From IMG/VR virus record IMGVR_UViG_3300023184_000048, positions 32,001-96,000 of that record: 64,000 nt of DNA; one strand, written 5' to 3'. This DNA is from a virus. The notes under the pieces were generated by a model that made no database searches, had not been told where the DNA came from, and saw only the letters and a program-made list of their open reading frames with translations. Position 1 is the stretch's first letter. Each line of letters begins with the position of its first letter. Below, piece by piece: positions 665 to 54,544 of this stretch. A program made the position numbers and the translations under genes.

Positions 665-2476
665 ATGGATCAGAACCTTGAGTATAACCTTCCTCAAAAT
701 GCTTACACAAATTTTGACGCGACATCATTGAAGTCATTCATGATCCAACAGCTTAATGCTGAAGGTAGATTCACTGATCAAAACTATGAAGGTAGTAATA
801 TATCATCTCTGGTCAATGTTTTGGCATATTACACTCATGTTTTGATGTTCTATCTCAACCAAACATCATCTGAGTCGATGTTTTCACAAGCTTCGATTTA
901 TGAAAACATGAATAAGATCGTCAAACTGATTGGATACAAGCCGACAGGCAAACAGACATCACTTTCGCCTATTAATTGTGTGGCTTCTGCTGATTTAGCT
1001 CTTGGTAACTATGTCATTCGTAAGTATAGTTATTTTTTAATTGATAATATCCAATATACCTTCATAAGTGACCAGTCTTTTGAGAAATCGACAGCATCAT
1101 CTGAAAATATCGGGGCAATTAATAATAATTCTATCATTTATCAAGGAACTGTTGGGGAATATCCAATTTATGATGCTGAAGGTATTGAATATGAGACATT
1201 GCCCATCGTTGTTGATAATTTGATTGATTCGAAAGATACTAGATTCATATCGCATGGCACTATTTCAGTATATGTCAAAGAAAGTGATAACTCACTGTGG
1301 CATGAGTATGATGAGGTTGATAGTTTATTTTTATCAGATTCAACAAGCAGAGTGTTTGATCTGAGGCTTAATGAAAATGGTCATTATGAAGTTAAGTTTG
1401 GTAATGGTGTGTTTGGAAGATCACTCAAGTCTGGGGATCAGGTTGCAATTTTCTACATATTAAGTGATGGTGATAAGGGACAGATTTCCAAAAATGCTAT
1501 CAACGGTAACAAATTATTTGTGTATAATAGCCAAAGATTTAATGAAGTTTATATTGATGTGAACTCGGGATCTATCTCAACACAAATAGATCAGACAAAT
1601 ACAGGACTGTTAACATTTAATAATCCTTCAAATTCCACTCTTTTACAAGATGCTGAAACCGTTGATCAAATTAGAGAAAACAGTCCTACATTTTTGTCAA
1701 GTCAATTAAGACTTGTGACTGAAAATGATTATGAAAAATTTTTAAAGAAAAGTATTCCAAATATTTTAAATTCGGTCAAGGTCGTGAATAACAAAACATT
1801 CATATCAGAGTATATTGATTATTTTTATCAAATATCTGTTGATCCAAACAAAGTTAATAGAGTCATTCTTAATCAGGTTAATTTTGCTGATTCTTGTGAC
1901 TTCAACAATATTAATGTGTTTTGTGTTCCGACATTTAACATAACAACAGATGGACAATATCCAGAATTTTTGACAAACAGCTTCAAGGGACTAATAAGAA
2001 CTCTGACAAATGATAAGAAAATAATCTCGAATGAAATTGTCCCGAGAGATCCGGTATACACTGCATTTGATATAGGATTTAGTAATTTAACACCTAACAA
2101 ATCTGTCTATGATAAGACAAAATTGATAATTACTAGAGAGACAAACAATAAAACAAATAAAGAAACTCTTAAAAAAAGAGTCTCCAATGTTATTTTGGAT
2201 TATTTCAACCCAAAAAATATGAGCTTGGGTCAAACCATCAACATATCAGATTTAGCCTCCAGTATATTATCTCTGGATGGTGTAAAAAATATAAAGACCA
2301 AAAATTTTGAAGAGAATATATATTTCAATGGTATATCGTTTATCACTTGGAATCCAGCATTTGATGGTGTCGATGAGACGTTGATAAATCAAACAACAAC
2401 ACTACCATTCTTCAAATTTCCTTATTTCTACAGACCAAATTCTCTAATCAACCGCATTGAAATAACAGACGAATGA
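665..2476 (+). CDS. gp6: Baseplate wedge subunit, T4 gp6-like
   Basis: DF..LK, FTDQNYEGSNISSLVNVLAYYTH, YEVKFGNGVFG, RLVTENDY motifs; follows gp25. Confidence 0.9.
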   Translation: MDQNLEYNLPQNAYTNFDATSLKSFMIQQLNAEGRFTDQNYEGSNISSLVNVLAYYTHVLMFYLNQTSSESMFSQASIYENMNKIVKLIGYKPTGKQTSLSPINCVASADLALGNYVIRKYSYFLIDNIQYTFISDQSFEKSTASSENIGAINNNSIIYQGTVGEYPIYDAEGIEYETLPIVVDNLIDSKDTRFISHGTISVYVKESDNSLWHEYDEVDSLFLSDSTSRVFDLRLNENGHYEVKFGNGVFGRSLKSGDQVAIFYILSDGDKGQISKNAINGNKLFVYNSQRFNEVYIDVNSGSISTQIDQTNTGLLTFNNPSNSTLLQDAETVDQIRENSPTFLSSQLRLVTENDYEKFLKKSIPNILNSVKVVNNKTFISEYIDYFYQISVDPNKVNRVILNQVNFADSCDFNNINVFCVPTFNITTDGQYPEFLTNSFKGLIRTLTNDKKIISNEIVPRDPVYTAFDIGFSNLTPNKSVYDKTKLIITRETNNKTNKETLKKRVSNVILDYFNPKNMSLGQTINISDLASSILSLDGVKNIKTKNFEENIYFNGISFITWNPAFDGVDETLINQTTTLPFFKFPYFYRPNSLINRIEITDE

Positions 2477-4686
2477 GCAGCACAACAACCACAATTAACT
2501 TCTCATGTGTCGATTACAGGGGTGAACAATCCCTATCGTCTTATGCTATTCCGATAACTCCTTTTTTTCTAACTCCCGATTTATCAGAACTGGCGTTGAG
2601 CGCAATTAACAGCCATAAAGTTATTTGGGATTTTGGTGACGGCACAACATCAAAATCATTCTCAGCGGTTAAGTCATATGAATTTCCCGGAATATATGAC
2701 ATTAATCTTGTCATCTATGATTGCAACAATAATGCACTCATATCAACCCAGACAAAAATAGTTCAGGTGTATGATTATTTGCCATATACATTTAATATTA
2801 GGGCTTATGGTAGATTTCTGACAGAGGATGGTTCATATATTATTTCGGAGGACGGATCATATATTGTCAGTGAGGTTCCAGTGATTGAAATAAAAGCAGG
2901 AAAAATTGAGGGATCATTTAACTTTGAATCTACCTACCCAGCGTATCAGCCTCCAACAAGCATATATTACGAAGTGTCTGGATCTGACAGTAATAATTAT
3001 TGGGAGATATATAAAAATAAGTTCGAGCATTTGGATAATAGCTATGCTATATACGAACAAACGTATAATTTTAGCATATCAGCAAATCAATATCATCAAT
3101 TGAAAAATATACAATTTGATGTATCTGATATTTATGCCAAAGTATCTGAAGGTTCGGTCATCAGATGTTCAAAAGAAGACATCAATTCTTGTTTGGTTGG
3201 TAGATCTGGGAATAAAGATGTATATATCAAAGATGATGCCCCATCTCAAAATTCAAAATGGAAATTCTTTTTCGATAAAACGAAAAATAAGTTACCTTTT
3301 TACAATGGTAACACAAATCATCTGAATAATTTAGCTATAGTTATGAGTCTGAGCGTCTTAGAAAACACTCCAGATCATTTATCCATTACTTCTAATGGTC
3401 TTGATGGTGAGGGTGTGACTGTTGACTCTTTTAATATAAATCCCATAAAATATTTTGATACTAAAATACCATTTGTGATTAGGATCAAAGATATTGATAA
3501 TTTTTCTATAAAAGACTTTCAAACTATACAATTGTCCGCATTATCAATAACATTATCTGCGATTGGCAATGTTCAAATCGTCGATGAAAATGGTCAATTT
3601 TTATTGAACGAAAATGGGGAAGAGATTTATGCGACTGGAGTAAATTATCTGCTATCGAATACACAATATAGTATATCTTCTTTGAATTATACATTATCAT
3701 CACAGGATTCTGGTGGATCTTTTAGAGGATATATACAATTCTCAACCAATCCAGAGAATACAATTTTACAAAATGTAAAAATATACACATCAGCCACGGT
3801 CATCAGTAATCAATTAAGCTCATATGAATTATCTGGAAGTTCATCATTTTTTAACGTTTATTCAAAAAATTATTTTGATTTGTATAAAAAGAATGAGGAT
3901 TTCAATCCAGAGCAGACATTGAAAGATTTAAGATTTCAAGAAACTCTTTTAGATAAAGAAGTATTGTTTGGAGATTTTCTTGGTGGATTATTGGGTAATG
4001 AAAATTCTGATCATGAAGGTATCGGCTTGAAGATTTATGAAAAAATAGCAAACTTTGTTGGAAATACCCAAGATATTGACACTTGTGAAGAGGATCATAT
4101 AGAATCTTTGGGATTATTTTTAGGATATAATAACAAAAATGAGGAGAACTACACATATCCAGAAAAGATAAAGAGAATACTTAACTTAGCGTCAATCGAT
4201 AAAACCAAACTTGTAGGAATTGATAATAAGTTTGCAGAAAATTTTGATATTAAGGGAAGATCATCCAAAGATGAATACGGAATCAATACAGGAGATATTA
4301 TAGATCCAAATACATATATAGTCACTGCTGGTATCCCTATAGTAGCTCTCGAAAAGTTTAGTAATACCTATTCCCTATTAAACACATTCCAACCCGTTTC
4401 GGCTGTTGGGTCATTCACATATCCCCTCAGTTTATATAATTCTGACTTTGGTTGGCCATTGGTCCTTCCAAGCGATTTTGATTATAAAGATTTTTCAAAA
4501 TATTATATATTTTTTGAATACGTTGATCAATATGATGGTAGTGTGGTTGGTTCTCTGGGAGATTTTGTAAATGATAAAACAACAATAGATTCAAGTTCGT
4601 CAAGTTCTGACTTATACGGAGAAAGTGGTATATTCCAGAATATGTTCATGGATACTTTATATCAATCACTCTCTTTGATTAATTAA
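2473..4686 (+). CDS. PKD-domain baseplate/tail structural protein
   Basis: WDFGDGT...KSYEFPGIYDINL PKD motif; overlaps gp6 stop; structural context. Confidence 0.6.
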   Translation: MSSTTTTINFSCVDYRGEQSLSSYAIPITPFFLTPDLSELALSAINSHKVIWDFGDGTTSKSFSAVKSYEFPGIYDINLVIYDCNNNALISTQTKIVQVYDYLPYTFNIRAYGRFLTEDGSYIISEDGSYIVSEVPVIEIKAGKIEGSFNFESTYPAYQPPTSIYYEVSGSDSNNYWEIYKNKFEHLDNSYAIYEQTYNFSISANQYHQLKNIQFDVSDIYAKVSEGSVIRCSKEDINSCLVGRSGNKDVYIKDDAPSQNSKWKFFFDKTKNKLPFYNGNTNHLNNLAIVMSLSVLENTPDHLSITSNGLDGEGVTVDSFNINPIKYFDTKIPFVIRIKDIDNFSIKDFQTIQLSALSITLSAIGNVQIVDENGQFLLNENGEEIYATGVNYLLSNTQYSISSLNYTLSSQDSGGSFRGYIQFSTNPENTILQNVKIYTSATVISNQLSSYELSGSSSFFNVYSKNYFDLYKKNEDFNPEQTLKDLRFQETLLDKEVLFGDFLGGLLGNENSDHEGIGLKIYEKIANFVGNTQDIDTCEEDHIESLGLFLGYNNKNEENYTYPEKIKRILNLASIDKTKLVGIDNKFAENFDIKGRSSKDEYGINTGDIIDPNTYIVTAGIPIVALEKFSNTYSLLNTFQPVSAVGSFTYPLSLYNSDFGWPLVLPSDFDYKDFSKYYIFFEYVDQYDGSVVGSLGDFVNDKTTIDSSSSSSDLYGESGIFQNMFMDTLYQSLSLIN

Positions 4687-9955: not shown

Positions 9956-10528
9956 ATGAGTGAGGTCAAGCAAAGCCATCTTAATAAAGCGAAACAGGAT
10001 AAATTCCTGTTGGTCTTCGACATTCCACCCATCCTGAAAGGAATCACCAGAAAATATGAAAGGAATAATAAAACAATTATTCCCGATAGTGTTCAATTCT
10101 CGGTTTTTGGTTCATTGATACCAGAAATTACTGTGAAAGGTGTTTTGGCTAAATTTGCAGGATCTGGTTTATATCAATCAAGTTTTGCCAAGGATGCACC
10201 ACCCCCAGTCAATATTAAATTCAATGTTGACTCTCAATATAATAACTATTGGGTGATTTACTCTTGGTTGAATCTATTACATGATCAAAAAACTGGTGTA
10301 TATAACCAAAGCAATATTCCAGTGGATGGTAATTTCAATGATTACCAAACAGATTTGACAATTTATGGTTTGGATGAATATCTCGAAAAAAAGGTAAAAT
10401 TTACATACAAGAAAGCATTTCCCACAACTTTGGACTCCATCACCTATTCCCAGAAAGGTGAATCCGGTGAAGAAATTGAATCAGGGTTCACCTTTCTTTA
10501 TTCTCAGATGCATGTTGAATTATTATAA
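9956..10528 (+). CDS. Tail completion/tube terminator, T4 gp3-like
   Basis: VQFSVFGSLIPEIT, NIKFNVDSQYNNYWVIYSWL, YKKAFPTTL: tube-fold family; lies between terminase and sheath. Confidence 0.7.
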   Translation: MSEVKQSHLNKAKQDKFLLVFDIPPILKGITRKYERNNKTIIPDSVQFSVFGSLIPEITVKGVLAKFAGSGLYQSSFAKDAPPPVNIKFNVDSQYNNYWVIYSWLNLLHDQKTGVYNQSNIPVDGNFNDYQTDLTIYGLDEYLEKKVKFTYKKAFPTTLDSITYSQKGESGEEIESGFTFLYSQMHVELL

Positions 10529-10547
10529 CCTTAAAATAAATAACCAC

Positions 10548-11405
10548 ATGATTAAGAAAGATGTTTTTGGATATTTGTATAAACATACTAGATTAGATAA
10601 TAATGAAGTGTTTTATATAGGTATTGGAACATCTAAAAACTATGCAAGAGCTTATAATAAAACTAGGAGAAATCGCCTCTGGGTCAATATAGCAAATAAA
10701 ACTAATTACGTAGTTGAGATAGTTTTGGATAATATTCCTTATTCCGATTTATTGGAAAGAGAAAAAGAATTTATCAAATTATATGGTAGGAAAAATAAAA
10801 ATGAGGGAACTCTCGCCAATCTGACTGATGGTGGAGAAGGGGTGTTGGGTGCTATAAAGCCTCATGGTGGGAAAGGTAAGAGTTGGGATGAGATTTGCAA
10901 CAATCCCGAACAAGTTAGAATAAACAGAGAAAATAGAAGCAACCCATACAATATAAGTATACATTCTCCAGATGGAAATATTGAGGAAATAAGATGTGAA
11001 AATGTTGGAGACTTTAATAGGAAACTTAAATTAACATCTAAATACCTCAATATTTTAAAGAAAGAAAAATCCATAATAATCAAAAGGATAAGACTGGAGA
11101 CTAAACACAATTTTCAAACAGGGACAATATTATCATATCAACCAATTTATAGAGAAAAACAAACATTTATATACCCCAAGCCAAAACTTGGAGACAGACG
11201 TAAGCCTTTTACAGTATCAATAAAACAACCAGATAAGGATTCGGTAGATGTTTATTGTGAAAGCTATGATGATTTTTATAAAAAGATACCAGTGGCATCC
11301 AACATCTTAAAATCAATTATCAGAAATAAATTTGCAATTATTCAAAAAATAAAGAAAGAGGCGAGACATAACTTTTCTGTGGGAACGACTTTAACTTTAA
11401 TATGA
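10548..11405 (+). CDS. Free-standing homing endonuclease, GIY-YIG-like
   Basis: GYLYKHTRLDNNEVFYIGIG...RA...E...LANLTDGGEG N-terminal domain; repeated C-terminal segment; late TAAATA box. Confidence 0.8.
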   Translation: MIKKDVFGYLYKHTRLDNNEVFYIGIGTSKNYARAYNKTRRNRLWVNIANKTNYVVEIVLDNIPYSDLLEREKEFIKLYGRKNKNEGTLANLTDGGEGVLGAIKPHGGKGKSWDEICNNPEQVRINRENRSNPYNISIHSPDGNIEEIRCENVGDFNRKLKLTSKYLNILKKEKSIIIKRIRLETKHNFQTGTILSYQPIYREKQTFIYPKPKLGDRRKPFTVSIKQPDKDSVDVYCESYDDFYKKIPVASNILKSIIRNKFAIIQKIKKEARHNFSVGTTLTLI

Positions 11406-26079: not shown

Positions 26080-27156
26080 ATGGATATCAAAAATCAGGTA
26101 ATAGCCGCAAGACACAATGGAATGACTTATTCTCAAATTTATGATGAATTTGGAATTGCCAAAAGCACAGCCCGAGATTGGTATTCTCGATACATTGAAG
26201 ATTCTTATCAAGAAATTATCAATGACTCAGACACACCTGTTGGTTATGTCAACGACAATTTGCAAAGAGATAAACCTTCCAGATTCAAAAAGACTGAGGA
26301 TGAAGTTCTTGAATTTTTGGCACAATTAGCTCCAATCAAGGTTACGCCAAAATATGAAAATCAATCGACAATTACTTTGAGTGATTATGCTGTTGTTGGG
26401 TCAGATTTCCACTTCGGTTGTCATGATCCAAAAGCGATTGATATTTTCTTGGAAACCATTTTTCAAATTAAACCCAAGACTATTATTCTTAATGGTGATA
26501 CCATGGATTTCTTAGCTATTTCAAAATATCCAAAGGATCTGAAACATAATTGGTCACTTCAAAAAGAGCGTGAAGAGTATCATGCATTCTTGGATGAATT
26601 GATTGGTGTATCTGGTGGTGCTGATATATATGAAACCGTCTCAAATCACTCAGGACAGTCCGTAGGTGGAAGATGGAGGCGTTACCTATCTGATAGAATT
26701 GGAGAGCTTGCTTGCCTACCAGAGATCACAGAAACACTAAGTTATGAGAATGTCTTCATGGGTGATTATAAGAACCGTATTAAGCATGTCGATTATGTTG
26801 ATCTAAATGGTCTAATTGTTACTCATGGTGAAACAGTTAGAAGTGCTGGTGGTGCTTCATGTCTAGCAGAAGTTAATAAATGGGGTGCTAGTATCTTACA
26901 TGGTCATACTCACAGGTTGGGAATGTCGGTAAAAAGAATTCCAGCTATTGGTAATAGAAGTGAACAACAATTATACGGATTTGAATCGGGGTGTCTTTGT
27001 TCATTAGATGCCGCATATGGTAGCGGAATGAACTGGAATCAAGGTTTTAGTATAGTAAGTCTTGATCAGGATGGTCATACTTTTGGGGTCGAGCAAGTTT
27101 CAATTATCGGTGGAGTTTCAAATATTTCAACTTTGGGAAAAACTATCAGAGTCTGA
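26080..27156 (+). CDS. Calcineurin-like metallophosphoesterase with N-terminal HTH
   Basis: SDFH, NGDTMD, SNH, THG, HGHTH motifs; GMTYSQIYDEFGIAKSTARDW HTH. Confidence 0.85.
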   Translation: MDIKNQVIAARHNGMTYSQIYDEFGIAKSTARDWYSRYIEDSYQEIINDSDTPVGYVNDNLQRDKPSRFKKTEDEVLEFLAQLAPIKVTPKYENQSTITLSDYAVVGSDFHFGCHDPKAIDIFLETIFQIKPKTIILNGDTMDFLAISKYPKDLKHNWSLQKEREEYHAFLDELIGVSGGADIYETVSNHSGQSVGGRWRRYLSDRIGELACLPEITETLSYENVFMGDYKNRIKHVDYVDLNGLIVTHGETVRSAGGASCLAEVNKWGASILHGHTHRLGMSVKRIPAIGNRSEQQLYGFESGCLCSLDAAYGSGMNWNQGFSIVSLDQDGHTFGVEQVSIIGGVSNISTLGKTIRV

Positions 27157-27795
27157 ATAAATCCATTTAAACCCTTTGTGGGTTTTCTTTCTTCCCCGAC
27201 AGCAATGAACAATCATACTATGCATTGTCCCTAATTCATTACAGCATTCTTGAATAGAATTCCATTCTTTGATGAAAGAATTATCCAGTGTGAGTTGATG
27301 AATTTTTCTAGTTTTTGGTATTATATGATTCATACCTCTTCTCTTTAGAAATATTAGTTGACTCAATGATAAAGTCTTACCTTTATGGCTAATTGACATT
27401 TTATTTTTGGTTTCCGTGGAGTGTTTTTTGCCTATCATCTTTATTCGTTGATCTTCTGGCATTTTTCCTTTTATATAGTCGGCACCCACACCACCATCAG
27501 AAAAATTCACCAGAGTCCCCTCATTTGTATTCCTCTTTCCATATAGTTTAATAAAGTCTGTTTCTTTTGAAGAGATTTCGTCTTTTGAAAGATTTATACA
27601 CATGATTTCAACTTCATAAGCAGTTTTTGAGGTTATACTGTTCCAGAAAGCACTCCTACCTCTTGTTTCAAACGCTCTTTTAAATCTTTTATTTTCATTT
27701 TTAGCACTAACACCAACATAAAAAACTTCATTGGTGTCTAATCTAATGTGACGATACAAATATCCAGTATTTTGATTATCCCTTTTCAATTTCAT
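27127..27795 (-). CDS. Homing endonuclease, GIY-YIG-like with NUMOD3 and NUMOD1/HTH tail
   Basis: GYLYRHIRLDTNEVFYVG; KKHSTETKNKMS; FIKEWNSIQECC..I..CCRGRKKTHKGFKW. Confidence 0.8.
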   Translation of the reverse strand: MKLKRDNQNTGYLYRHIRLDTNEVFYVGVSAKNENKRFKRAFETRGRSAFWNSITSKTAYEVEIMCINLSKDEISSKETDFIKLYGKRNTNEGTLVNFSDGGVGADYIKGKMPEDQRIKMIGKKHSTETKNKMSISHKGKTLSLSQLIFLKRRGMNHIIPKTRKIHQLTLDNSFIKEWNSIQECCNELGTMHSMIVHCCRGRKKTHKGFKWIYSDSDSFSQS

Positions 27796-28007
27796 TGTTC
27801 ATCATCCTTTCTAATGATATAACCTTTACTTTTAAGAATATCACTTATATTAATCCAAATATCCTCATCTTCTTTAAAATTATTACTAATATAAATAGTT
27901 CCATTCTCTAGCTGAGATGCTTCAGGTATCAACCCTTGTTTGAAATGATTGTAAGCTGTTCTATAAGTTATTCCCTTCTCCTTCGCGTAATCCGATAATT
28001 TCATCAT
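27792..28007 (-). CDS. MerR-like HTH protein resembling the IS607 TnpA DNA-binding N terminus
   Basis: MKLSDYAKEKGITYRTAYNHFKQGLIP..QLENGTI; no serine-recombinase catalytic domain. Confidence 0.65.
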   Translation of the reverse strand: MMKLSDYAKEKGITYRTAYNHFKQGLIPEASQLENGTIYISNNFKEDEDIWINISDILKSKGYIIRKDDEQ

Positions 28008-31707: not shown

Positions 31708-32360
31708 ATACCCTAGTTATTAGTGATATACATCTTGGAAGCGCAGTTAGTCAAAAAGAAGCAGTCTTGCGCGTTCTCAATCTGGACTTTCAAAAACTCG
31801 TTATTAACGGCGATTTATTCGACAGTTATTCATTCAAGCGATTTGATAAGAAGGATTGGGCGATTCTTTCTAAGATTCGAAAACTCAGCAAATCTCATGA
31901 AGTCATTCTTGTGCATGGCAATCACGATTCGGACGCACAATTTCTGAGTGCCATCACTGGCATGGACTTTGTTGAGAATTACTTAACCGTGATTAACGGC
32001 AAAAGAATATTCTTTGAACACGGTGACAAGTATGATCATTGGATCAAACACAAGCCATTTATAACTTGGTTCTTTACGGGTGCTTACTACTGGATTCAAA
32101 AGTATGATAAGAATCATAGCGCATCCAGAATACTTAAACGCATGAGCAAATCATGGATCAAGGCTAAAGACATCGTATGTAAAAAGTTTGTCGAGAAGCA
32201 CGGTTCAAAGAATGATATACTTGTAGCTGGTCATACACATTATCCAGAAGTAAAATATTTTGAACATTGCGTCTATATAAACACAGGATCTTTCTGTGAT
32301 GATAAGTGTTCATATTTGGAAATTTACGATGATGGATCGTTCGACTTAAAATTTATATAA
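31704..32360 (+). CDS. Metallophosphoesterase, LpxH (UDP-2,3-diacylglucosamine hydrolase)-like
   Basis: ISDIHLG, INGDLFD, GNHD, EHGD, GHTH, INTGSF motifs. Confidence 0.75.
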   Translation: MNTLVISDIHLGSAVSQKEAVLRVLNLDFQKLVINGDLFDSYSFKRFDKKDWAILSKIRKLSKSHEVILVHGNHDSDAQFLSAITGMDFVENYLTVINGKRIFFEHGDKYDHWIKHKPFITWFFTGAYYWIQKYDKNHSASRILKRMSKSWIKAKDIVCKKFVEKHGSKNDILVAGHTHYPEVKYFEHCVYINTGSFCDDKCSYLEIYDDGSFDLKFI

Positions 32361-38097: not shown

Positions 38098-39132
38098 ATG
38101 AAAAAGCATTACTCATTCCCAAAAATTGGGCAATATCATCAAACTATTCGACACTTGAAACTTCAACACTCTTATCAGGGTAAGGATGAAAATGGTGATC
38201 CAATTTATAAAGAACCTGATGTGTGGCCAGTGGTTAAATTCAAGGGAACCGTAAAATTGCATGGTAGCAACGGAGCAGTTGTATTCTCTCCTCATGGTTC
38301 TTTCTATTGCCAATCCAGAGAAAATGTGATTGATGAAATTAAGGATAATGCTGGATTCGCTCATTGGGTGAATAAGGAAGGTCATAAAATTTGGGAAGAT
38401 GTATGGCATAAAGTTGATCTGAATATTGATAAACATGATTCGCTCATTAAACTTATTGTGGTGTTCGGAGAATGGTGTTGTGGTTCGATTCAGAAAGGCG
38501 TAGCATTAAATGAACTCTCCAAGAGATTTGTAATTTTTGGATTAAAGATTATATTTGAAGATGAGACTACTCGATGGATGGATTCTTCTGGAATTATAAA
38601 CTCAGAAATTAGTGTTTATAATATTGAAGATGCGCCAACTTATGAAATTGAAGTTGACTTAAATCGTCCAGACAAAGCCATTGAACAGATGAACACTTGG
38701 GTTGATGAAATTGATGCTGAATGCCCATTCGCTAAGATGTTTAATGTTTCTGGGCATGGTGAAGGAATTGTGTGGCGAGAAGCTGGAAAATTTGGATATG
38801 ATACTTCATTCAAAACTAAAGGAGAATCCCACAGCAAGTCCAAAATCAAAAAGCTTCCTACTGTTGATGTTCAAAAGATGGACAATATTCAACAAGCGAT
38901 TGATACTCATTGTCATGAAGATAGAATGCTTCAAATTTATGATAAAGTTGTAGTGACTGAAGCTGATAAGACTCCAAAAAACATTGGATTATACTTGCAG
39001 AAATTGATCGAAGATTGCTGGACTGAAGAGGGTGATTCTATGAGAGCTTCTGATATTTCTCGTAAGGATTTTGGTGCTGCTGTTTCTAAAAAGGCTGCTA
39101 AGTGGTTTCAAAACAAATTACAAGAATTTTAA
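38098..39132 (+). CDS. RNA ligase, Rnl2 family
   Basis: Motif I TVKLHGSN, FGEW, FVIFG, GEGIVW, FKTKG. Confidence 0.85.
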   Translation: MKKHYSFPKIGQYHQTIRHLKLQHSYQGKDENGDPIYKEPDVWPVVKFKGTVKLHGSNGAVVFSPHGSFYCQSRENVIDEIKDNAGFAHWVNKEGHKIWEDVWHKVDLNIDKHDSLIKLIVVFGEWCCGSIQKGVALNELSKRFVIFGLKIIFEDETTRWMDSSGIINSEISVYNIEDAPTYEIEVDLNRPDKAIEQMNTWVDEIDAECPFAKMFNVSGHGEGIVWREAGKFGYDTSFKTKGESHSKSKIKKLPTVDVQKMDNIQQAIDTHCHEDRMLQIYDKVVVTEADKTPKNIGLYLQKLIEDCWTEEGDSMRASDISRKDFGAAVSKKAAKWFQNKLQEF

Positions 39133-43264: not shown

Positions 43265-43675
43265 ATGAAAAACATTATAATACTCAGATCGTGTTCGAGT
43301 GCTGGTAAAAGTTCCTTCGCTAAACTCCTATGCCAACAAATTGGTTGGGTTGAGTGCAATGCTGATTTCTTCTTTGAAGATAAAGAAGGAAATTATAATT
43401 TTGATTTCAATAAGATTGGTGATGCTCATGCTCAGTGTCGTAAAAGTTTCATGGAAGCTTTAAAAGAGTCCACTGTCACTGGAATTGTTGTGAGTAATAC
43501 CAACGTTGAAGAAAAGCAATGGAAGTTTTATGAAGATGAGGCTAAGAAGGTTGGAGCAAGAGTTACTTTTTTGGTTATCGAAAAAAGGCATGATGGCGAA
43601 AATAATCATAACGTTCCAGAGACTTCTCTTCAGAGTCAGGAAGACAGAATTAGGAATAGTTTAAAACTGAGGTAA
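43265..43675 (+). CDS. P-loop kinase (polynucleotide kinase/AAA_33-like)
   Basis: IIILRSCSSAGKS degenerate Walker A, NADFFF, IVVSNTN, HNVP. Confidence 0.75.
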   Translation: MKNIIILRSCSSAGKSSFAKLLCQQIGWVECNADFFFEDKEGNYNFDFNKIGDAHAQCRKSFMEALKESTVTGIVVSNTNVEEKQWKFYEDEAKKVGARVTFLVIEKRHDGENNHNVPETSLQSQEDRIRNSLKLR

Positions 43676-45122: not shown

Positions 45123-45434
45123 ATGCAAGTAATTATTACAAAAGTCAAAACTGTCGATATTGATTTGGATGCTGAACGTAAGAAAATCAAGAAAGGCTTT
45201 AATAAGAAATCCGAAAGAATCTATCGTGATAAGCTTCTTGAAGTGATTGATATATTTGAACGGGATGGATTTAATATGGCATGTGACGCTTATGATGAAC
45301 TACCCTATAATGAAGTGGATGAATACCCTCTACAAGAGAGTATGGGTATTTGGTGGTGGCAAATTGTCAATGATCAGAGTTTTAATTATCATGATAATGT
45401 CAAGCATCAGTATAAGATGGAAATAATTAAATGA
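45123..45434 (+). CDS. Hypothetical protein
   Basis: ORF track; start uncertain. Confidence 0.55.
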   Translation: MQVIITKVKTVDIDLDAERKKIKKGFNKKSERIYRDKLLEVIDIFERDGFNMACDAYDELPYNEVDEYPLQESMGIWWWQIVNDQSFNYHDNVKHQYKMEIIK

Positions 45435-45730
45435 CTAATTTAGAAATAGCGAAAGATATTCAAAAAGCTTATAAGCTTTTACTGGATAAAACGTCTTGGA
45501 AAGCGACCACGGGTAGTCATAAGGCTGCTTGTGATGTTATCAGCCAAATGACATCATATCATTTAGCTTTGAAAGCTTTTGGTTATATGACTAATGATGA
45601 AGGAAAATTGGTGAAATATAAACCAAGAGTCTTATCGGAATATGAACAACTGGTAATGAATACTACCTCTGGGAAAGAATCAGATGCTCAGAAACTGTTA
45701 GATTATATCTATACACACGGAATACAATAA
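45431..45730 (+). CDS. Hypothetical protein
   Basis: ATGA coupling. Confidence 0.55.
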   Translation: MTNLEIAKDIQKAYKLLLDKTSWKATTGSHKAACDVISQMTSYHLALKAFGYMTNDEGKLVKYKPRVLSEYEQLVMNTTSGKESDAQKLLDYIYTHGIQ

Positions 45731-45755
45731 TTAAAAACTAGAATATAATCACAAC

Positions 45756-46847
45756 ATGAAAATCAAATTTAATGATTACAATTTGGAGGGTTTTAATAAG
45801 AAAGAGGTGTTGTTTTGTGGTATCGAAGCAATTTTAATCACTCCTGATGATATTAAGTCTAAGTTTACCCAAGATAATAAGATCTTCAGATCATCAATTT
45901 GGTCCAGAGACGGTGAATTATTATCAGCTTCGTTTCCTAAGTTCAAAAATGCAGGTGAAGACCCTGATAATTTTCCAATGCCTAAATCTTTGGATGGTGT
46001 TGGTATCGTTACTAAAATCGATGGATCTACTTGTATTGTTGATTTTGTCAATGGTGAATTTTCAATGAGAACCAGAGGAGTTTCATCATACTTGACACAG
46101 GCTAATTATAAAGATTTTGAGTTCTGTATTGAGAAGTATCCCAAAATCAAAGCTAGTATAATGAACAATCCTGATTATTCGTTTATCTTTGAAATTGTCA
46201 CACCAAACCAAAAAATTGTTCTTGATTATGGCCCTGAGCCAGATGTTATCTTGATCGGTGCTATTGATAAGAATCAGTATTGGATTGTGGAACAACGATA
46301 TCTTGATAATCTAGCTGAAGCTATTGGTGTCAAACGTCCAGAATATCATAATTTTGATTCATTTGAAGATATTTACGAATTTTGTAAAATCAATAGAACT
46401 ATCGAAGGGTTTTGTTTATATTTTAATAATGGTCAATCGATTGTGAAGGTGAAGACTGATTTTTACCTAGCATTGCATCGTCTCTTTTCGGGAATGAAGA
46501 CTATCGGTAATGTGATTGATGTGTTCCTCACAACCCCAAGGTTTACGAAGTATTCAGATTTTTATGAATTTATCTGTGTAAATATGGACTTTGAGTTAGC
46601 TGAACGTTGTAAGGATGATATCCTGAAGGTTGTCGTAGCTTATTGTAAGGTTCTGGAAAAAATTGAAATGATTAAAAATGTGATCAATAATGTTCGGGGT
46701 GATTCATTCACTCGTAAGGAACAAGCTTTAGACATCATGCAACATTATGGTGGGGATATAAGACAAAAAATAGCATTTTTGTTATTGGATGATAAACCAA
46801 TACCGGATAATATTTTAAAGATGTTTATAGAACATGAGTTACAATAG
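45756..46847 (+). CDS. RNA ligase, T4 Rnl1-like
   Basis: SFPKFKN, TKIDGS motif I, FIFEI, IEGFCL, VKVKTDFY. Confidence 0.85.
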   Translation: MKIKFNDYNLEGFNKKEVLFCGIEAILITPDDIKSKFTQDNKIFRSSIWSRDGELLSASFPKFKNAGEDPDNFPMPKSLDGVGIVTKIDGSTCIVDFVNGEFSMRTRGVSSYLTQANYKDFEFCIEKYPKIKASIMNNPDYSFIFEIVTPNQKIVLDYGPEPDVILIGAIDKNQYWIVEQRYLDNLAEAIGVKRPEYHNFDSFEDIYEFCKINRTIEGFCLYFNNGQSIVKVKTDFYLALHRLFSGMKTIGNVIDVFLTTPRFTKYSDFYEFICVNMDFELAERCKDDILKVVVAYCKVLEKIEMIKNVINNVRGDSFTRKEQALDIMQHYGGDIRQKIAFLLLDDKPIPDNILKMFIEHELQ

Positions 46848-47651
46848 TTTGAACTTACACTTATCAAAGTGCCACCTAGTTGAATTTTGTGGTGTTAATG
46901 ATAAATTACAATGTGGGCAGGATACTTTAGATCTATTGTTAGCTGAATCCCGTATATTTTCAATTTGAGCTTGAGTCCTCTTCAACCCTCTAATTTTAGA
47001 GGCTCCCTTTTCCACAGAATCTCTTGATCTTTTTTTACCTTTATGAGATTTAGAAATTTTATCTCTAGTTTCCTGTGGAATAGTTTTCCCTAAGTTTCTT
47101 AATCTATTCTTTTCTATGTCCTCCAGTGATCTCTTCTTACCTTTTTGTGCTATAGACATTTTAATTTTTGATTCTTCTGTGTGTTTTTGGCCCAATCTAT
47201 TTGTGTTTCCCATTTTAGATAATGATAATTTTCTTTTTCTTTCGTCAGATGCTTTGTGACCCAAACAATAGGTGTTTCCTTTATGAAAATTTGATATTTT
47301 TCGTTTCGTTTCTTCTGTATGTTTCCTACCCAACCAAACTTTTGAGTTGGAACCCCTTTCAGATATATTATAACCATGAGGAGCAATTGTATTAAATCTC
47401 TTAATTAATTCTTCTTCCAAATTTAAAAGATCATCCTTGGAAAAATTGGGGAGATACTCAATATACACACTAAAATTATCGATGCCGTATTTTACAAATG
47501 CCTTATGAATTACTTGCTCCTTTCTATTTTTATGACTATTCAATCTTTTATGTATATTAACAGATTCTCCAATATAATGCTTATTGTTTATCGTGTTTGT
47601 TATTATATACACACCTCTTTCCTTTTTCAAATCTTTAAAAGATATCCCCAT
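46839..47651 (-). CDS. GIY-YIG homing endonuclease with NUMOD3 repeats and C-terminal Zn finger
   Basis: GVYIITNTINNKHYIGES; repeated KHTEETKRKIS-type units; CPHC...HFDKC; ATG 5 nt after TAAATA. Confidence 0.9.
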   Translation of the reverse strand: MGISFKDLKKERGVYIITNTINNKHYIGESVNIHKRLNSHKNRKEQVIHKAFVKYGIDNFSVYIEYLPNFSKDDLLNLEEELIKRFNTIAPHGYNISERGSNSKVWLGRKHTEETKRKISNFHKGNTYCLGHKASDERKRKLSLSKMGNTNRLGQKHTEESKIKMSIAQKGKKRSLEDIEKNRLRNLGKTIPQETRDKISKSHKGKKRSRDSVEKGASKIRGLKRTQAQIENIRDSANNRSKVSCPHCNLSLTPQNSTRWHFDKCKFKLL

Positions 47652-47714
47652 ATTACTATTTAACAACTTTATATACTTTTGATATTCAGGTATCTAAAAA
47701 CTAGATCAAAATCC

Positions 47715-47813
47715 GGTTTCAAAAAGTCGATGGCATTCCTTTTGCTTGACAATAAGGAGATCCCTGATACTTTGTTGAGGACAGCGATTGAAGAAACGAT
47801 TGAAAAGATCTAA
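47715..47813 (+). pseudogene. Orphan 3' end of an RNA ligase allele
   Basis: GFKKSMAFLLLDNKEIPDTLLRTAIEETIEKI* aligns with the ligase C terminus IRQKIAFLLLDDKPIPDNILKMFIEHELQ*. Confidence 0.8.
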
Positions 47814-47842
47814 ATTAAAAACTAAAACATAATAAACATACA

Positions 47843-48745
47843 ATGAACACGACACAGAAAAAACAAAATAGGAACAGTGATTTTTTTGAAGACCTTATCA
47901 AAGGATCTACAAAATCGTTCATCCCTAAAAAAGTTAAGACAAAACAAGCAGAATGGATTACAATTAATCCACTTCAGAGTAAGCATATTCTGAAGTTTTA
48001 TAATAACGGAAATCGTCGTCCTTCGAAAAATCAAGTTCTCAAATATTCCAAGGATATGGAGAATGATAACTGGAAGGAGACTGGAGAACCGATTTCATTC
48101 GATAAAAATGGAAATGTTATCAATGGTCAACATAGACTTTATGGAATGATTCTGGCAGACAAAGAATATGAATTTCTGGTAAACTATGGTCTAGATCGAG
48201 AAGTGTTTGATGTTATTGATAATGGTTTGATTCGACCCAATTCAACAATCCTAGAGTTGGAAGGTCATTCGGATACTGTCAATCTATCTGCTCTCGTTCG
48301 TGCCATCATTGCTTACACCGATAATGGTAATTATGATGCGAAAGATTTCAAAGGAGTCAATCAAATTACCATTAGTCAAATCAAAGATTATCTGAAGGAT
48401 AATGAGGATGTGGTAGATTATCTTGATCGATATAAGAAAAGTGCGGTTGTGTCATGTTCAATTTCGTCTTTTTGTTATTGGTTACTTTCCACTGTTGATA
48501 AGACCGAAGCTGAAAATTATTTGGATATGGTTTTTATGGGATATGGACTGACCCCAAACACCATCGAGCATTATCTTTTTGATAAACTTCAACGTAACAA
48601 GAATGCAACACAAAACAAAATGACCAAGACTGCCATCATCTGTAATGTTATTCTTGGTTGGAGACGTTATATGGGATGGTCTAAGACTAAAGCTATGCAA
48701 ATCACTTGGGATGTTCGCAAAGGCTTTCCAAAGCCAACAGAATAA
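47843..48745 (+). CDS. ParB/Srx-like N-terminal domain protein
   Basis: NRRP...YSKDM...W..TGEPISF...NGQHRL motif. Confidence 0.65.
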   Translation: MNTTQKKQNRNSDFFEDLIKGSTKSFIPKKVKTKQAEWITINPLQSKHILKFYNNGNRRPSKNQVLKYSKDMENDNWKETGEPISFDKNGNVINGQHRLYGMILADKEYEFLVNYGLDREVFDVIDNGLIRPNSTILELEGHSDTVNLSALVRAIIAYTDNGNYDAKDFKGVNQITISQIKDYLKDNEDVVDYLDRYKKSAVVSCSISSFCYWLLSTVDKTEAENYLDMVFMGYGLTPNTIEHYLFDKLQRNKNATQNKMTKTAIICNVILGWRRYMGWSKTKAMQITWDVRKGFPKPTE

Positions 48746-48981
48746 TGAAACTTTTGCCAATTCATAGATATGATTCACAAACTCAATTGTCGAAATTGAA
48801 AGAAGTTTGCAATAAGATATATATCGCCAGAAATATCTCTTTAAGTCAAGAAGGAGTCATCAAACAACTTGAAGTGATCGACACATTATTCCGAAGTGAT
48901 AATGAAGATTACGATATGTATGATGAAAAACAGGCTAATGAGAGATATGGTGATTTTGATGTTACAGAATTTCATTATTAA
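48745..48981 (+). CDS. Hypothetical protein
   Basis: TAATG coupling. Confidence 0.55.
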   Translation: MKLLPIHRYDSQTQLSKLKEVCNKIYIARNISLSQEGVIKQLEVIDTLFRSDNEDYDMYDEKQANERYGDFDVTEFHY

Positions 48982-51631: not shown

Positions 51632-52186
51632 ATGAATATCTTCCCAATTGCAGATAATTATTGTCCTATTAAATCTGCTCAAGAACTTTGTAATCGTCAC
51701 AGTTCAAGAATGCCCTTAGAGACAGCGGGTATGTTATCCTTTGCATTTCCAGAAGGTGATACATCTATCAAAAACGATAGAAAAAATAGACACTATATCC
51801 ACCCAGCTAGTAAATGGGTAAGAGAATCATTAGAAAATTTTGAATGGACTGTATTACATGGTTTGGCCCAATGTGAAGAATATACAATTCGATATAAACG
51901 TAGACATGCTTCTCAAGATTTTATAGAATGGGCTTCCGATAATTATAAGTATCTAACCTTTAACGTTAATGAGTTTACACCATTTGCTAGATGCTTTGGA
52001 CCATTCAAAGATTTGTTGGATTCGGAAGAATCAAATACATTACAAGCATATAGAAAATTTTACCATTTAGATAAAAGAGATTTTGCCAAATGGCCACAGA
52101 TCAAGAAAATACCTGATTGGTGGGATGATATAACAAATGATTATGTGGATAAATCATTTGTTAATGGGGATTATTCAAAAAGATAG
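51632..52186 (+). CDS. Pyrimidine-dimer DNA glycosylase/endonuclease V-like protein
   Basis: MNIF...H..RMPLETAGML, HPASKW, EEYTIRYKRRH, AYRKFY..K...PDW. Confidence 0.7.
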   Translation: MNIFPIADNYCPIKSAQELCNRHSSRMPLETAGMLSFAFPEGDTSIKNDRKNRHYIHPASKWVRESLENFEWTVLHGLAQCEEYTIRYKRRHASQDFIEWASDNYKYLTFNVNEFTPFARCFGPFKDLLDSEESNTLQAYRKFYHLDKRDFAKWPQIKKIPDWWDDITNDYVDKSFVNGDYSKR

Positions 52187-52227
52187 ACAACAATACAAAA
52201 CTATTCATTTTAGACTAAATAGTTTAT

Positions 52228-52986
52228 GTGAGTGATAAAATAAATATACCAGTTGATATCAAATTAAAAATTGTTGAAGATTATAAAAATCTGATAAGAA
52301 ATGATGAGATATGTTCAAAGTATGATCTAACTGCCCCTAGGTTGTATAATATTTTAAAGGAATATGATATTCCCAAAAAAGGACCAAGAAAATCAGAAGC
52401 TAGATCTGGTGAAGATATAAAATGTTTAAAATGTGGTTGTCAAAAACATCAATCACAATTTCCGAAAGTGAAGGGGGTTTATAGAACATTGTGTAAAACA
52501 TGCCATTGTCATAATGAAAAAATCCGAAGAAGTAAAATGTCACCAGAAGAGAAAAAACTTATAGGCGAGAGATGTTATAATATTGTCAAAGCAAAAAAAC
52601 TTAAAGCATCTAGAGGAGAACTTCCACTATCAGATCAAATATACATATGGGTGAATAAAATAACTGGGAGAAGAACTGAGGAAAGATTCAAAGAAAGAAA
52701 GAAATTATGTAAAAACATTTTAACCAAAAAATGTTATTCAGCCAGACAAATATTTCCCGATATTATATTCTGTTTTGTGAATAATACAGGTCAAAATAGA
52801 GCAATGATAGCATCTTTAGATAGAATTGATCCATCGAAGGGATACACAGATGAAAATACCCAAATTATACCATACTGGTTAAACTCGGCCAAGTTGGATT
52901 CTTCACAAGAAGAAATAGACAATACAATAATTAATTATATATTAAATGATCAGAAATTATTAGATTCCTTAAAATCAAAGATCTAA
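52228..52986 (+). CDS. HNH-like homing endonuclease with N-terminal HTH and Zn finger
   Basis: CLKC...CKTC; SLDRIDPSKGYTDENTQII..LNSAK; GTG 6 nt after TAAATA. Confidence 0.75.
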   Translation: MSDKINIPVDIKLKIVEDYKNLIRNDEICSKYDLTAPRLYNILKEYDIPKKGPRKSEARSGEDIKCLKCGCQKHQSQFPKVKGVYRTLCKTCHCHNEKIRRSKMSPEEKKLIGERCYNIVKAKKLKASRGELPLSDQIYIWVNKITGRRTEERFKERKKLCKNILTKKCYSARQIFPDIIFCFVNNTGQNRAMIASLDRIDPSKGYTDENTQIIPYWLNSAKLDSSQEEIDNTIINYILNDQKLLDSLKSKI

Positions 52987-53325
52987 TCTAATCATCCAAG
53001 CAGCATTTGGCTGAGAACAAGTTATGACAATTTTCTTTGGGGTATTGAACATGCGTATGCTATTGCAAATGAATACACTGAACGTTACAGTAAGAGACAT
53101 AAATCTGAAGATGTTCTTGATTGGATAGAATCAAATATGTGGCAGTTGTCATTTGATTCTAACGATTTGACTCCTTATGCCATTGCGATTACAGAGGATG
53201 CGGTTTGTAGAACATTGCCCGAATTTAATCAAGTTGACACTATCAGTAAATACCGCTTATTTTACAAGTATGATAAAGCCCATCTTCATAAGTGGAAACA
53301 AAATAAACCAGATTGGATTGATTAA
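52987..53325 (+). pseudogene. 5'-truncated second allele of the glycosylase-like gene
   Basis: SNHPSSIWLRTSYDNFLWGIEHAYAIANEYTERYSKRHKSEDVLDWI...KYRLFYKYDK...KPDWID* parallels 51632-52186 from the HP motif onward; no start or N-terminal ~55 aa. Confidence 0.8.
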
Positions 53326-53451: not shown

Positions 53452-54486
53452 TTAATCTGGAATTTTCCGACCAATAGAATTAAGAATTTCATTTCTTTTC
53501 TGAATAGCTTCTTCTAAAGTTTTTGCATTTGGTCTATATATCTTCTCCCCAGACTGTATATAGATTCTATAATAACCATTATCAAATCCTATATTAGCAT
53601 GTTTGATTTTTTTAGCTTTTTGTATGACTGTTTTGGGATGTGTGTAATTAGTTGATTTATACTGTTCGAGTTTTTCTGGAAAATTTAAATGGTCAAGATT
53701 TATATTATTGCACACATTTAAAAAATCAGCCATTTCTGCTGCTTCATCTTCAAGTGTAAAGGTTCCCAGCCTAGATTCAAAAGTTTTTGTATTGATGTGA
53801 ATCCTCCAAACATTGAATCTAGGCTCGTAGCACACCCAATTATATTTGGAAACTTTTAAATTCCTTTTCAGTGTTCTTTCTGGGGATGCGTGAATTCCTA
53901 GAATATAATTATCAAAATTTTCAGGAAAGTTCATCATCAGTTTAGCTGATTCATGATCAAATAGTTCTAAAAGTTTTACATCTCTAGCGAAAGCTGCATC
54001 TTGATCAGTTTTGAAATTTTTCTGAGAAACTTTCTTTCTATTAAAAGTTATACAATAATCCCATCTTTCCATATCATTATTAAAATAAACGCCGATATAA
54101 ATGGTCTTTCCATTATATCTATCTGAAAGCTTTTCTTTTTTTGACTTCTTGAGTCCCTCAACTAGAGAGATCTTCATAGCATCTGTGAATTCTCCAGATA
54201 CAGAATTTTCTATAATATTATAACCATTTTTGGTAGTCAGAGAATTATACAAGTTTATGTAGTGTGTCTCTTTAATAAGAGCTGATCCCAGATCAATTGC
54301 AGTATCAATTTTCTCAATCTTGAATTTGTCTTTTCCATACTTTATCATGGCATTTCTCAACGGGAGATTGGTATTTTTCTTTTTGGAGAAATGGCCATTT
54401 AACCTAAGATTAAGTGGTTGTTTTGTTATTCCAATATAAACCTTATCATTTACACTATTTGTTATTTTATAAATCTTTCTCTCCAT
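53452..54486 (-). CDS. GIY-YIG homing endonuclease with three AP2-like domains
   Basis: KIYKITNSVNDKVYIG; YIGVYF..W..F...AA.ARD, KYNWVCY..W..LGTF..E.EAA, Y..I..TLEEAI..RN; ATG 5 nt after TAAATA. Confidence 0.8.
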   Translation of the reverse strand: MERKIYKITNSVNDKVYIGITKQPLNLRLNGHFSKKKNTNLPLRNAMIKYGKDKFKIEKIDTAIDLGSALIKETHYINLYNSLTTKNGYNIIENSVSGEFTDAMKISLVEGLKKSKKEKLSDRYNGKTIYIGVYFNNDMERWDYCITFNRKKVSQKNFKTDQDAAFARDVKLLELFDHESAKLMMNFPENFDNYILGIHASPERTLKRNLKVSKYNWVCYEPRFNVWRIHINTKTFESRLGTFTLEDEAAEMADFLNVCNNINLDHLNFPEKLEQYKSTNYTHPKTVIQKAKKIKHANIGFDNGYYRIYIQSGEKIYRPNAKTLEEAIQKRNEILNSIGRKIPD

Positions 54487-54544
54487 ACATTTATTTAGTC
54501 CATAACTACCGAAAATCAATTAAAAACTAGATTACAATACACAC

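Follow-up and report, generated by a model that had tools for sequence, protein, structure and literature searches.

The DNA analysed here, referred to as the window, comprises 64,000 nucleotides (positions 32,001 to 96,000) of IMG/VR virus record IMGVR_UViG_3300023184_000048, a genome of 116.7 kb with 33% GC. Genes for a terminase, a tail sheath protein, rIIA, rIIB, an Rnl2-type ligase and a kinase-like ATPase were found in the window, and the phage is treated as an uncultured T4-like myovirus. The analysis concerns the 3' end of its Rnl1-type RNA ligase gene, where an antisense gene for a GIY-YIG homing endonuclease overlaps the ligase stop codon and a second ligase-like gene end lies beyond the endonuclease. 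The features of the locus are given below in window coordinates, each with its basis in brackets.

45732-45749 (+), early-promoter cassette of the ligase gene, TAAAAACTAGA plus ATATAAT, 6 nt before the ATG (motif scan)
45756-46847 (+), full-length Rnl1-type RNA ligase gene, 363 aa (Pfam RNA_lig_T4_1, PHROG 562)
45756-46475 (+), ligase residues 1-240, nucleotidyltransferase domain of clade A type (69% identity to P0002)
46503-46748 (+), ligase residues 250-331, helical C-terminal domain of clade B type (identity and tree)
46749-46847 (+), current tail, the putative substitute, residues 332-363 plus stop, comprising the two final predicted helices (drop in identity to P0023; model)
46839-47651 (-), GIY-YIG/NUMOD3 homing endonuclease gene, 270 aa from ATG 47651 (Pfam, PHROG 314)
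47657-47662 (-), T4-type late-promoter box TAAATA, 5 nt before the endonuclease ATG (sequence reading)
47695-47705 (+), upstream half of an early-promoter cassette, at the right end of the insert, exact TAAAAACTAGA followed by tcaaaat, with no proper -10 box and no ATG
47715-47813 (+), stranded tail, the putative former one, 32 codons plus stop in an open frame (match to the C-termini of P0060 and P0023)
47816-47845 (+), complete early-promoter cassette plus ATG of the next gene (47843-48745, PHROG 5931, function unknown) (motif scan)

The ligase protein, which ends in IAFLLLDDKPIPDNILKMFIEHELQ followed by the stop, was matched by Pfam PF09511 (RNA_lig_T4_1) with 34.5 bits against a cut-off of 28.3 and by PHROG 562 over residues 43-359 (E = 3e-33). 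Homologues of 357-368 aa were found, and since 113 of the 120 homologues among the matches listed are 340-395 aa long, the gene is considered complete. The residues of the nucleotidyltransferase motifs are all present (K87-x-D-G-S, E217-G218 and K231/K233); K87, D89, G90, S91, E217, G218 and K233 are invariant among 43 homologues and K231 is nearly so. An AlphaFold model calculated with the 43 homologues had a pLDDT of 93.3, with helices across residues 235-362, and matched the ligase fold, an N-terminal adenylyltransferase domain and an all-helical C-terminal domain. The top PDB matches of this model in Foldseek were the T4 Rnl1 structures 2C5U, 5TT6 and 9DO4 (E values of 1.7e-15 to 7e-14); a phmmer search of PDB sequences with the ligase gave no match.

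The endonuclease open reading frame occupies 46839-47666 on the minus strand. The alternative start TTG at 47666 would give 275 aa; the likely true start is the ATG at 47651, and the database gene call is also of 270 aa. In the 275-aa reading, Pfam assigned residues 18-99 to GIY-YIG (PF01541) and identified three NUMOD3 repeats, and matches to PHROG 314 and to other homing endonuclease families were also obtained. The frame is open and the gene intact, with a GVY...YIG motif and a C-terminal CxxC...HxxxC cysteine/histidine cluster. Its stop codon lies inside the last ligase codons, so that the two genes overlap tail to tail by 9 nt. An earlier, sequence-only reading of the locus had described both this overlap between the ligase stop and an antisense GIY-YIG gene and a ligase-like end past the endonuclease at 47715-47813, and both were confirmed.

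The downstream piece reads GFKKSMAFLLLDNKEIPDTLLRTAIEETIEKI followed by a stop and is in the same frame as the ligase. Current and stranded tails were aligned by BLASTP with 13/28 identities (E = 8e-9), and the pair was recovered at E = 5e-4 when all stop-to-stop segments of the genome were compared with one another; only one other nearby duplicate pair in the 116.7 kb has an endonuclease gene between its copies. At the base level 45 of 84 positions (54%) are identical, the same codon is used for three of the 13 shared residues, and seven of the 18 bases encoding the conserved AFLLLD differ. The differing codon strings quoted for these residues in the sequence-only reading are correct.

The tails were then compared with the proteins P0023 (361 aa) and P0060 (367 aa). 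Identity to P0023 was 34/41 (83%) over ligase residues 291-331, 12/30 (40%) over the current tail and 26/32 (81%) over the stranded tail; the corresponding values for P0060 were 27/41 (66%), 11/30 (37%) and 29/32 (91%). In Fisher tests with P0023 the gene body differed from the current tail with p = 0.0003 and the stranded tail from the current tail with p = 0.0015; the contrasts for P0023 and P0060 together ranged from 1e-5 to 2e-2. It follows from this profile that the stranded piece, and not the tail in use, continues the gene body. The sequence-only reading had expected the stranded end to be contiguous with the ligase in relatives free of the endonuclease, and at the protein level P0023 and P0060 do carry a stranded-type end contiguous with a body that matches residues 291-331.

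The affinities of the current tail lie elsewhere. It is closest to the tails of other alleles (P0031 57%, P0002 53%, P0066 52%) and is 46% identical to the stranded tail; with the synonymous sites saturated as well, it is taken to have been imported rather than duplicated in place. Judged by residues and codons, the divergence of the two tails is that expected of two distant alleles, and a recent local duplication is ruled out. Duplication in place followed by divergence was considered and rejected, since it is the unused copy that has kept 91% identity to an allele in use, and the copy in use is nearer to other alleles than to its neighbour. The term 'recoded replacement C terminus' used in the sequence-only reading holds as far as the tail is foreign (57% to P0031, 53% to P0002). 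Recoding is overstated, because saturated synonymous sites are expected at such a distance between alleles, and the tail is merely that of a different allele.

Type-1 ligase sequence, that of P0023 and P0060, ends at Y331 and the current tail begins within G332-D334; the stranded tail begins at the glycine aligned with position 334 of the relatives. Both junctions lie at ligase codons 332-334. The insert (46749-47714) is 966 nt long and occupies a single point of the type-1 gene, with GGT at either edge. That a cassette had been inserted inside the gene, as first read from the sequence, is borne out by this 966-nt block at one ligase coordinate, codons 332-334. In the AlphaFold model the seam is the predicted loop 332-334 between helices 320-331 and 335-344, and the last helix comprises residues 351-362; the swap covers the last two helices and nothing more, which could account for the tolerance of the hybrid.

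The edges of the insert can be read against the promoter cassettes of the genome. Copies of TAAAAACTAGA with at most one mismatch were found 37 times in the window (21552-63623), against 3.25 expected by chance; 35 of the 37 are on the plus strand. Nearly every plus-strand copy is followed by an ATATAAT-like box and then an ATG, usually after 6 nt, and early-promoter cassettes of this kind would give leaderless-looking early transcripts. The cassette is also present in the metagenome loci L006, L014, L015 and L018. In this genome a gene typically ends with its stop codon and a cassette directly behind it, and the stop of the stranded tail, 2 nt before the complete cassette at 47816, has the appearance of such a native end. 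Another complete cassette, at 54521, comes after an antisense GIY-YIG gene (53452-54519) and is followed by the rIIA start (ATG 54545). The half cassette at the right edge of the insert suggests a remnant of a donor gene order of ligase, antisense endonuclease, cassette and next gene; on this ground the endonuclease is suggested to come from an ordinary intergenic slot behind another ligase allele.

Beyond the tail swap, the Rnl1 gene is, by identity and tree topology, chimeric at its domain boundary. Over residues 1-240, identity is 69% to P0002 and 31-39% to the nine-member clade B; in the tree of this domain the ligase and P0002 are sisters within clade A (support 97-99), with clade B separate and fully supported. 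Residues ~250-333, on the other hand, are 46-66% identical to clade B, or 57-66% if only residues 250-331 are counted, and 20-31% identical to most of clade A, and in the C-domain tree clade B, the ligase and P0002 form one clade (support 97/98). P0002 thus has the same domain discordance as the ligase. Joining the ligase with clade B was rejected for the N-domain (AU p = 0.0012) and a sister relation of the ligase and P0002 was not rejected for the C-domain alignment of 82 columns (AU p = 0.9), so that no independent acquisition of their clade-B C-domains is claimed; these p values are indicative only, as the clade groups were named after inspection of the data. Within the C-terminal domain, residues 291-331 are closest to P0023 and residues 247-305 to P0031 (72-76%).

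Occupied and empty alleles were compared as far as relatives were available. The P0023 and P0060 proteins are uninterrupted. The related loci (33-53% identity) are distant and empty: all 22 have a single contiguous tail and no second copy, and there is no second occupied locus among them. Three of these (L001, L003 and L004) have the order ligase, thioredoxin-like gene and phosphoesterase (with the kinase-like gene too in L001 and L004), and no endonuclease lies between their ligase and thioredoxin-like genes. A blastn search of GenBank phages with 45400-48200 gave no match, and tblastn gave only relatives below 30% identity, mainly from Streptomyces and Escherichia phages. Scans of IMG/VR with P0001, P0023 and P0002 found nothing; a scan of IMG/VR with P0060 and scans of metagenomes and genomes with the clade-B alignment yielded only loci at 33-53% identity. 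Small called ORFs (24-77 aa) resembling the stranded tail gave no candidates, a weak null since such ORFs are rarely called.

GIY-YIG genes were observed beside the ligase gene at two of the related loci. In L012 such a gene (3315-3953, minus strand, 39% identical) lies antisense directly upstream of the Rnl1 gene, and in L007 a more distant one (1783-2541, plus strand) lies in the sense orientation directly downstream; no duplicated piece of ligase was found beside the GIY-YIG gene at either locus. Their position indicates that the ligase genes of this phage group attract such elements.

We consider it probable that a type-1 ligase gene was cut and then repaired from a type-2 donor carrying the endonuclease, the old tail being stranded behind the insert. 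A ligase allele of P0023/P0060 type would have been broken at about codons 332-334, and the repair template would have been a phage with a type-2 ligase allele and, behind it in tail-to-tail orientation, a free-standing antisense GIY-YIG gene. The left end of the break would have paired with the donor ligase, and copying would have proceeded through the last 32 codons of the donor, the endonuclease and its late promoter and on into the early-promoter cassette that came next in the donor, of which only half would remain because copying stopped there and the right end of the break was joined on. The right end would have been joined without homology, or by GGT microhomology, to the far side of the break, so that the recipient's own last 32 codons would have been left stranded behind the insert. 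The product would be a whole hybrid ligase gene with a 3' end unlike the cut allele in 46% of its bases. With this divergence the new tail is probably not a target and probably resists cleavage, and in later rounds of homing into type-1 alleles the stranded tail could supply the homology on the right-hand side. We infer that the present endonuclease made the break, and infer the position of the cut; the hybrid ligase was presumably active and the gene thereby kept functional. The older domain mosaicism may or may not have been driven by an endonuclease.

Several points weigh against this account. Compared as proteins, P0023 and P0060 share just 34-39% identity with the ligase in the N-terminal domain and are therefore relatives of its C-terminal part only. 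The nearest relatives of the endonuclease are 49% identical and none is known at this site, so that no spread of the cassette is documented. The third point is one of composition. The GC content at third codon positions (GC3) of the stranded tail is 0.53, in the top 1.6% of the 32-codon windows of the genome, compared with 0.22 for the current tail, 0.26 for the endonuclease and a genome mean of 0.28 (standard deviation 0.10). The current tail and the endonuclease thus look resident, and on this pattern the present phage may be largely donor backbone.

The explanation built on this last point exchanges the roles of the two genomes. The phage would be mostly the endonuclease donor, its ligase would always have had the current tail with the endonuclease in an intergenic slot, and the P0023-like patch (~291-331) and the stranded tail would be scraps of a cut type-1 genome, left on the two sides of the cassette by crossover resolution or heteroduplex repair in a mixed infection. 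We regard this as rather unlikely. The GC3 of the current tail and the endonuclease (0.22-0.26) is typical of the genome and the stranded tail is the outlier; identity to P0031 and P0055 does not break at residue 331 (21/40 before it and 17/30 after it); residues 247-305 are closest to P0031, at the 72-76% given above; and the endonuclease carries promoter types of the present genome. However, the resolution required is more elaborate than plain copying from a break, GC3 over 32 codons is noisy, and the same cassette in relatives of higher GC (L006, L014 and L015) means that promoter type is no marker of the backbone. Exchanging the backbones alters the history and leaves the mechanism unaltered.

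It could also be supposed that nothing was replaced, the current tail being native and the downstream fragment a scrap of the previous host gene of the endonuclease, carried along as a passenger. The foreign composition of the fragment would fit, and homing endonucleases are known to co-convert flanking DNA (PMC2988022). This supposition leaves unexplained the drop in identity, from 83% to 40% against P0023 and from 66% to 37% against P0060, at the very point where homology to the fragment starts. It also has to accommodate the half promoter cassette between endonuclease and fragment and the native-like gene end of the fragment, with its stop 2 nt before a complete cassette, and we hold it to be improbable.

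Between the stranded tail and the thioredoxin-like gene, the region 47843-48981 contains a gene for a 300-aa PHROG 5931 protein with an 'NGQHRL' stretch and a 91-aa ORF. Both are missing from the syntenic loci L001, L003 and L004, which makes this a region of variable modules. The other nearby duplicate pair lies further downstream and consists of the following parts, listed with the GIY-YIG gene behind it.

51632-53325, second gene-end duplication, whole unit (homology of gene and orphan)
51632-52186, 184-aa gene, PHROG 624 'DNA binding protein', in some phages annotated as pyrimidine dimer glycosylase
52228-52986, HNH-type endonuclease gene, behind the 184-aa PHROG 624 gene
53452-54519 (-), other GIY-YIG gene, 355 aa, its upstream region ending at the rIIA early-promoter cassette

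Here a 112-codon orphan copy of the C-terminal two-thirds of the 184-aa gene continues straight from the stop of the HNH endonuclease. Orphan and gene are 39% identical over 112 residues (E = 1e-25), and one profile matches both. No duplicate was detected at the rIIA start beside the GIY-YIG gene at 53452-54519. The genome has four endonuclease paralogues, two further ones being found at 27130-27798 (-) of the window and at C1:6796-7494 (+) of the genome; the paralogue at 27130 and an ORF at 10398-11402 of the window have a 95-residue segment in common (47%). The phage also has a T4-like RNA repair set, assigned by PHROG matches: the Rnl2-type ligase (38098-39132, PHROG 548), the kinase-like ATPase (43265-43675, PHROG 2071 / polynucleotide kinase 505) and the Rnl1 gene (45756-46847).

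Alternatively, the stranded tail might be the remnant of a tandem ligase gene, or a product of shuffling between the repeated promoter cassettes, with the endonuclease merely filling the gap. Dozens of near-identical cassettes could mediate such recombination, the ligase is chimeric at the domain level and the extra downstream modules are not found in L001, L003 and L004. What makes this explanation very improbable is that the surviving fragment comprises only the 32 codons that were replaced in the live gene, with coinciding junctions. Moreover, the only other nearby gene-separated duplicate of the genome likewise flanks an endonuclease gene, and none of the 22 related loci has two tandem ligase genes of this family. 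An intron or intein, with a mature product that uses the downstream tail, is scarcely credible: the old tail is in the ligase frame and the 966-nt insert equals 322 codons, but the stop of the ligase frame follows a tail with ligase-tail homology of its own, the endonuclease runs antisense, Pfam found no Hint domain, and no Rfam family, group I and II introns included, was matched at 46400-48000 with E values up to 1. The intron was rejected on this Rfam result, in agreement with the sequence-only reading, which had called the cassette intron-less.

If repair of a cut type-1 allele is the correct account, the locus shows how an endonuclease with neither intron nor intein can lodge within the coding sequence of a useful phage gene and leave that gene whole. 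The predicted cut site is at codons 332-334 of type-1 ligase alleles. Chimeric Rnl1 enzymes could plausibly arise by endonuclease-driven repair; the part exchanged here lies in the C-terminal domain. In T4 Rnl1 this domain is held to confer tRNA specificity. For annotation, orphan gene ends of this kind are better taken for homing scars than for small genes. A broader reading, which we think possible with the odds somewhat against it, is that the swapping of gene tails or heads would be, next to introns and inteins, a third regular route for free-standing endonucleases to colonize the coding DNA of T4-like phages. Substitute tail, endonuclease and stranded tail would then together form a self-contained homing element, and the phage would carry two such units. 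Retention of the stranded tail as a right-hand homology arm would explain its 91% identity to a live allele, and repeated rounds of homing would also have produced the domain-level mosaic of Rnl1.

The nearest comparison within phages is with the free-standing Seg (GIY-YIG) and Mob (HNH) endonucleases of T4 and its relatives and their 'intronless homing'; these endonucleases resemble the present case in enzyme family, T4-like host, intergenic-type position, own promoter and co-conversion of flanking DNA (PMC2988022). A review from 2010 on the mobile DNA of T4-type phages describes endonucleases between genes or splitting genes (nrdA, gene 60 and gene 43); replacement of a gene end with the old end left behind is not in it (PMC2988022). 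In the full-text literature, of which the coverage is incomplete so that absence is unproven, no published report of gene-end replacement by a homing endonuclease in phages was found. Judged by the affinities of its parts, the locus has the anatomy of a gene-end-replacing element: the terminal segment and the body of the gene differ in origin, and an orphan copy of the segment lies beyond the endonuclease. It is an element of a known kind, in a class of host for which we found no published description.

Elements of this kind have been described from fungi. In fungal mitochondria, C-terminal duplication accompanies mobile endonuclease ORFs (mORFs) in atp6 of Allomyces macrogynus and in atp6, atp9, cox2 and nad3 of Glomus sp. 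(Beaudet et al. 2013, PMC3630166). As in the phage, a foreign in-phase C-terminus is followed by the endonuclease ORF and by the native C-terminus downstream, the native end is nearer to relatives than the inserted end, and in Glomus atp9 the endonuclease is of the GIY-YIG family (PMC3630166). The mORFs differ in residing in organelle genomes and in lying on the same strand as the host gene, often fused to it in frame and co-transcribed, whereas the phage endonuclease is antisense with its own late promoter.

The WHO elements at FBA1 of the yeasts Torulaspora and Lachancea, for which allele-specific cleavage and resistance of the replaced end have been shown experimentally (Coughlan et al. 2020, PMC7282813), are regarded in a 2026 preprint, which mentions no phage case, as a rare third category of homing element (Osborne et al., 10.64898/2026.08.13.744650). 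As in the phage, the host gene is whole, its 3' end arrived with the element, and the endonuclease gene comes immediately behind that end. Resistance in WHO elements is due to allelic sequence differences, and the fragment has been proposed as a downstream homology arm (PMC7282813). Their endonucleases are LAGLIDADG/intein-like with a zinc finger; the elements are nuclear and meiotic, have replaced about half of FBA1 and have built clusters. The phage element encodes a GIY-YIG/NUMOD3 enzyme in antisense, overlaps the stop codon of its host gene and involves an exchange of 32 codons.

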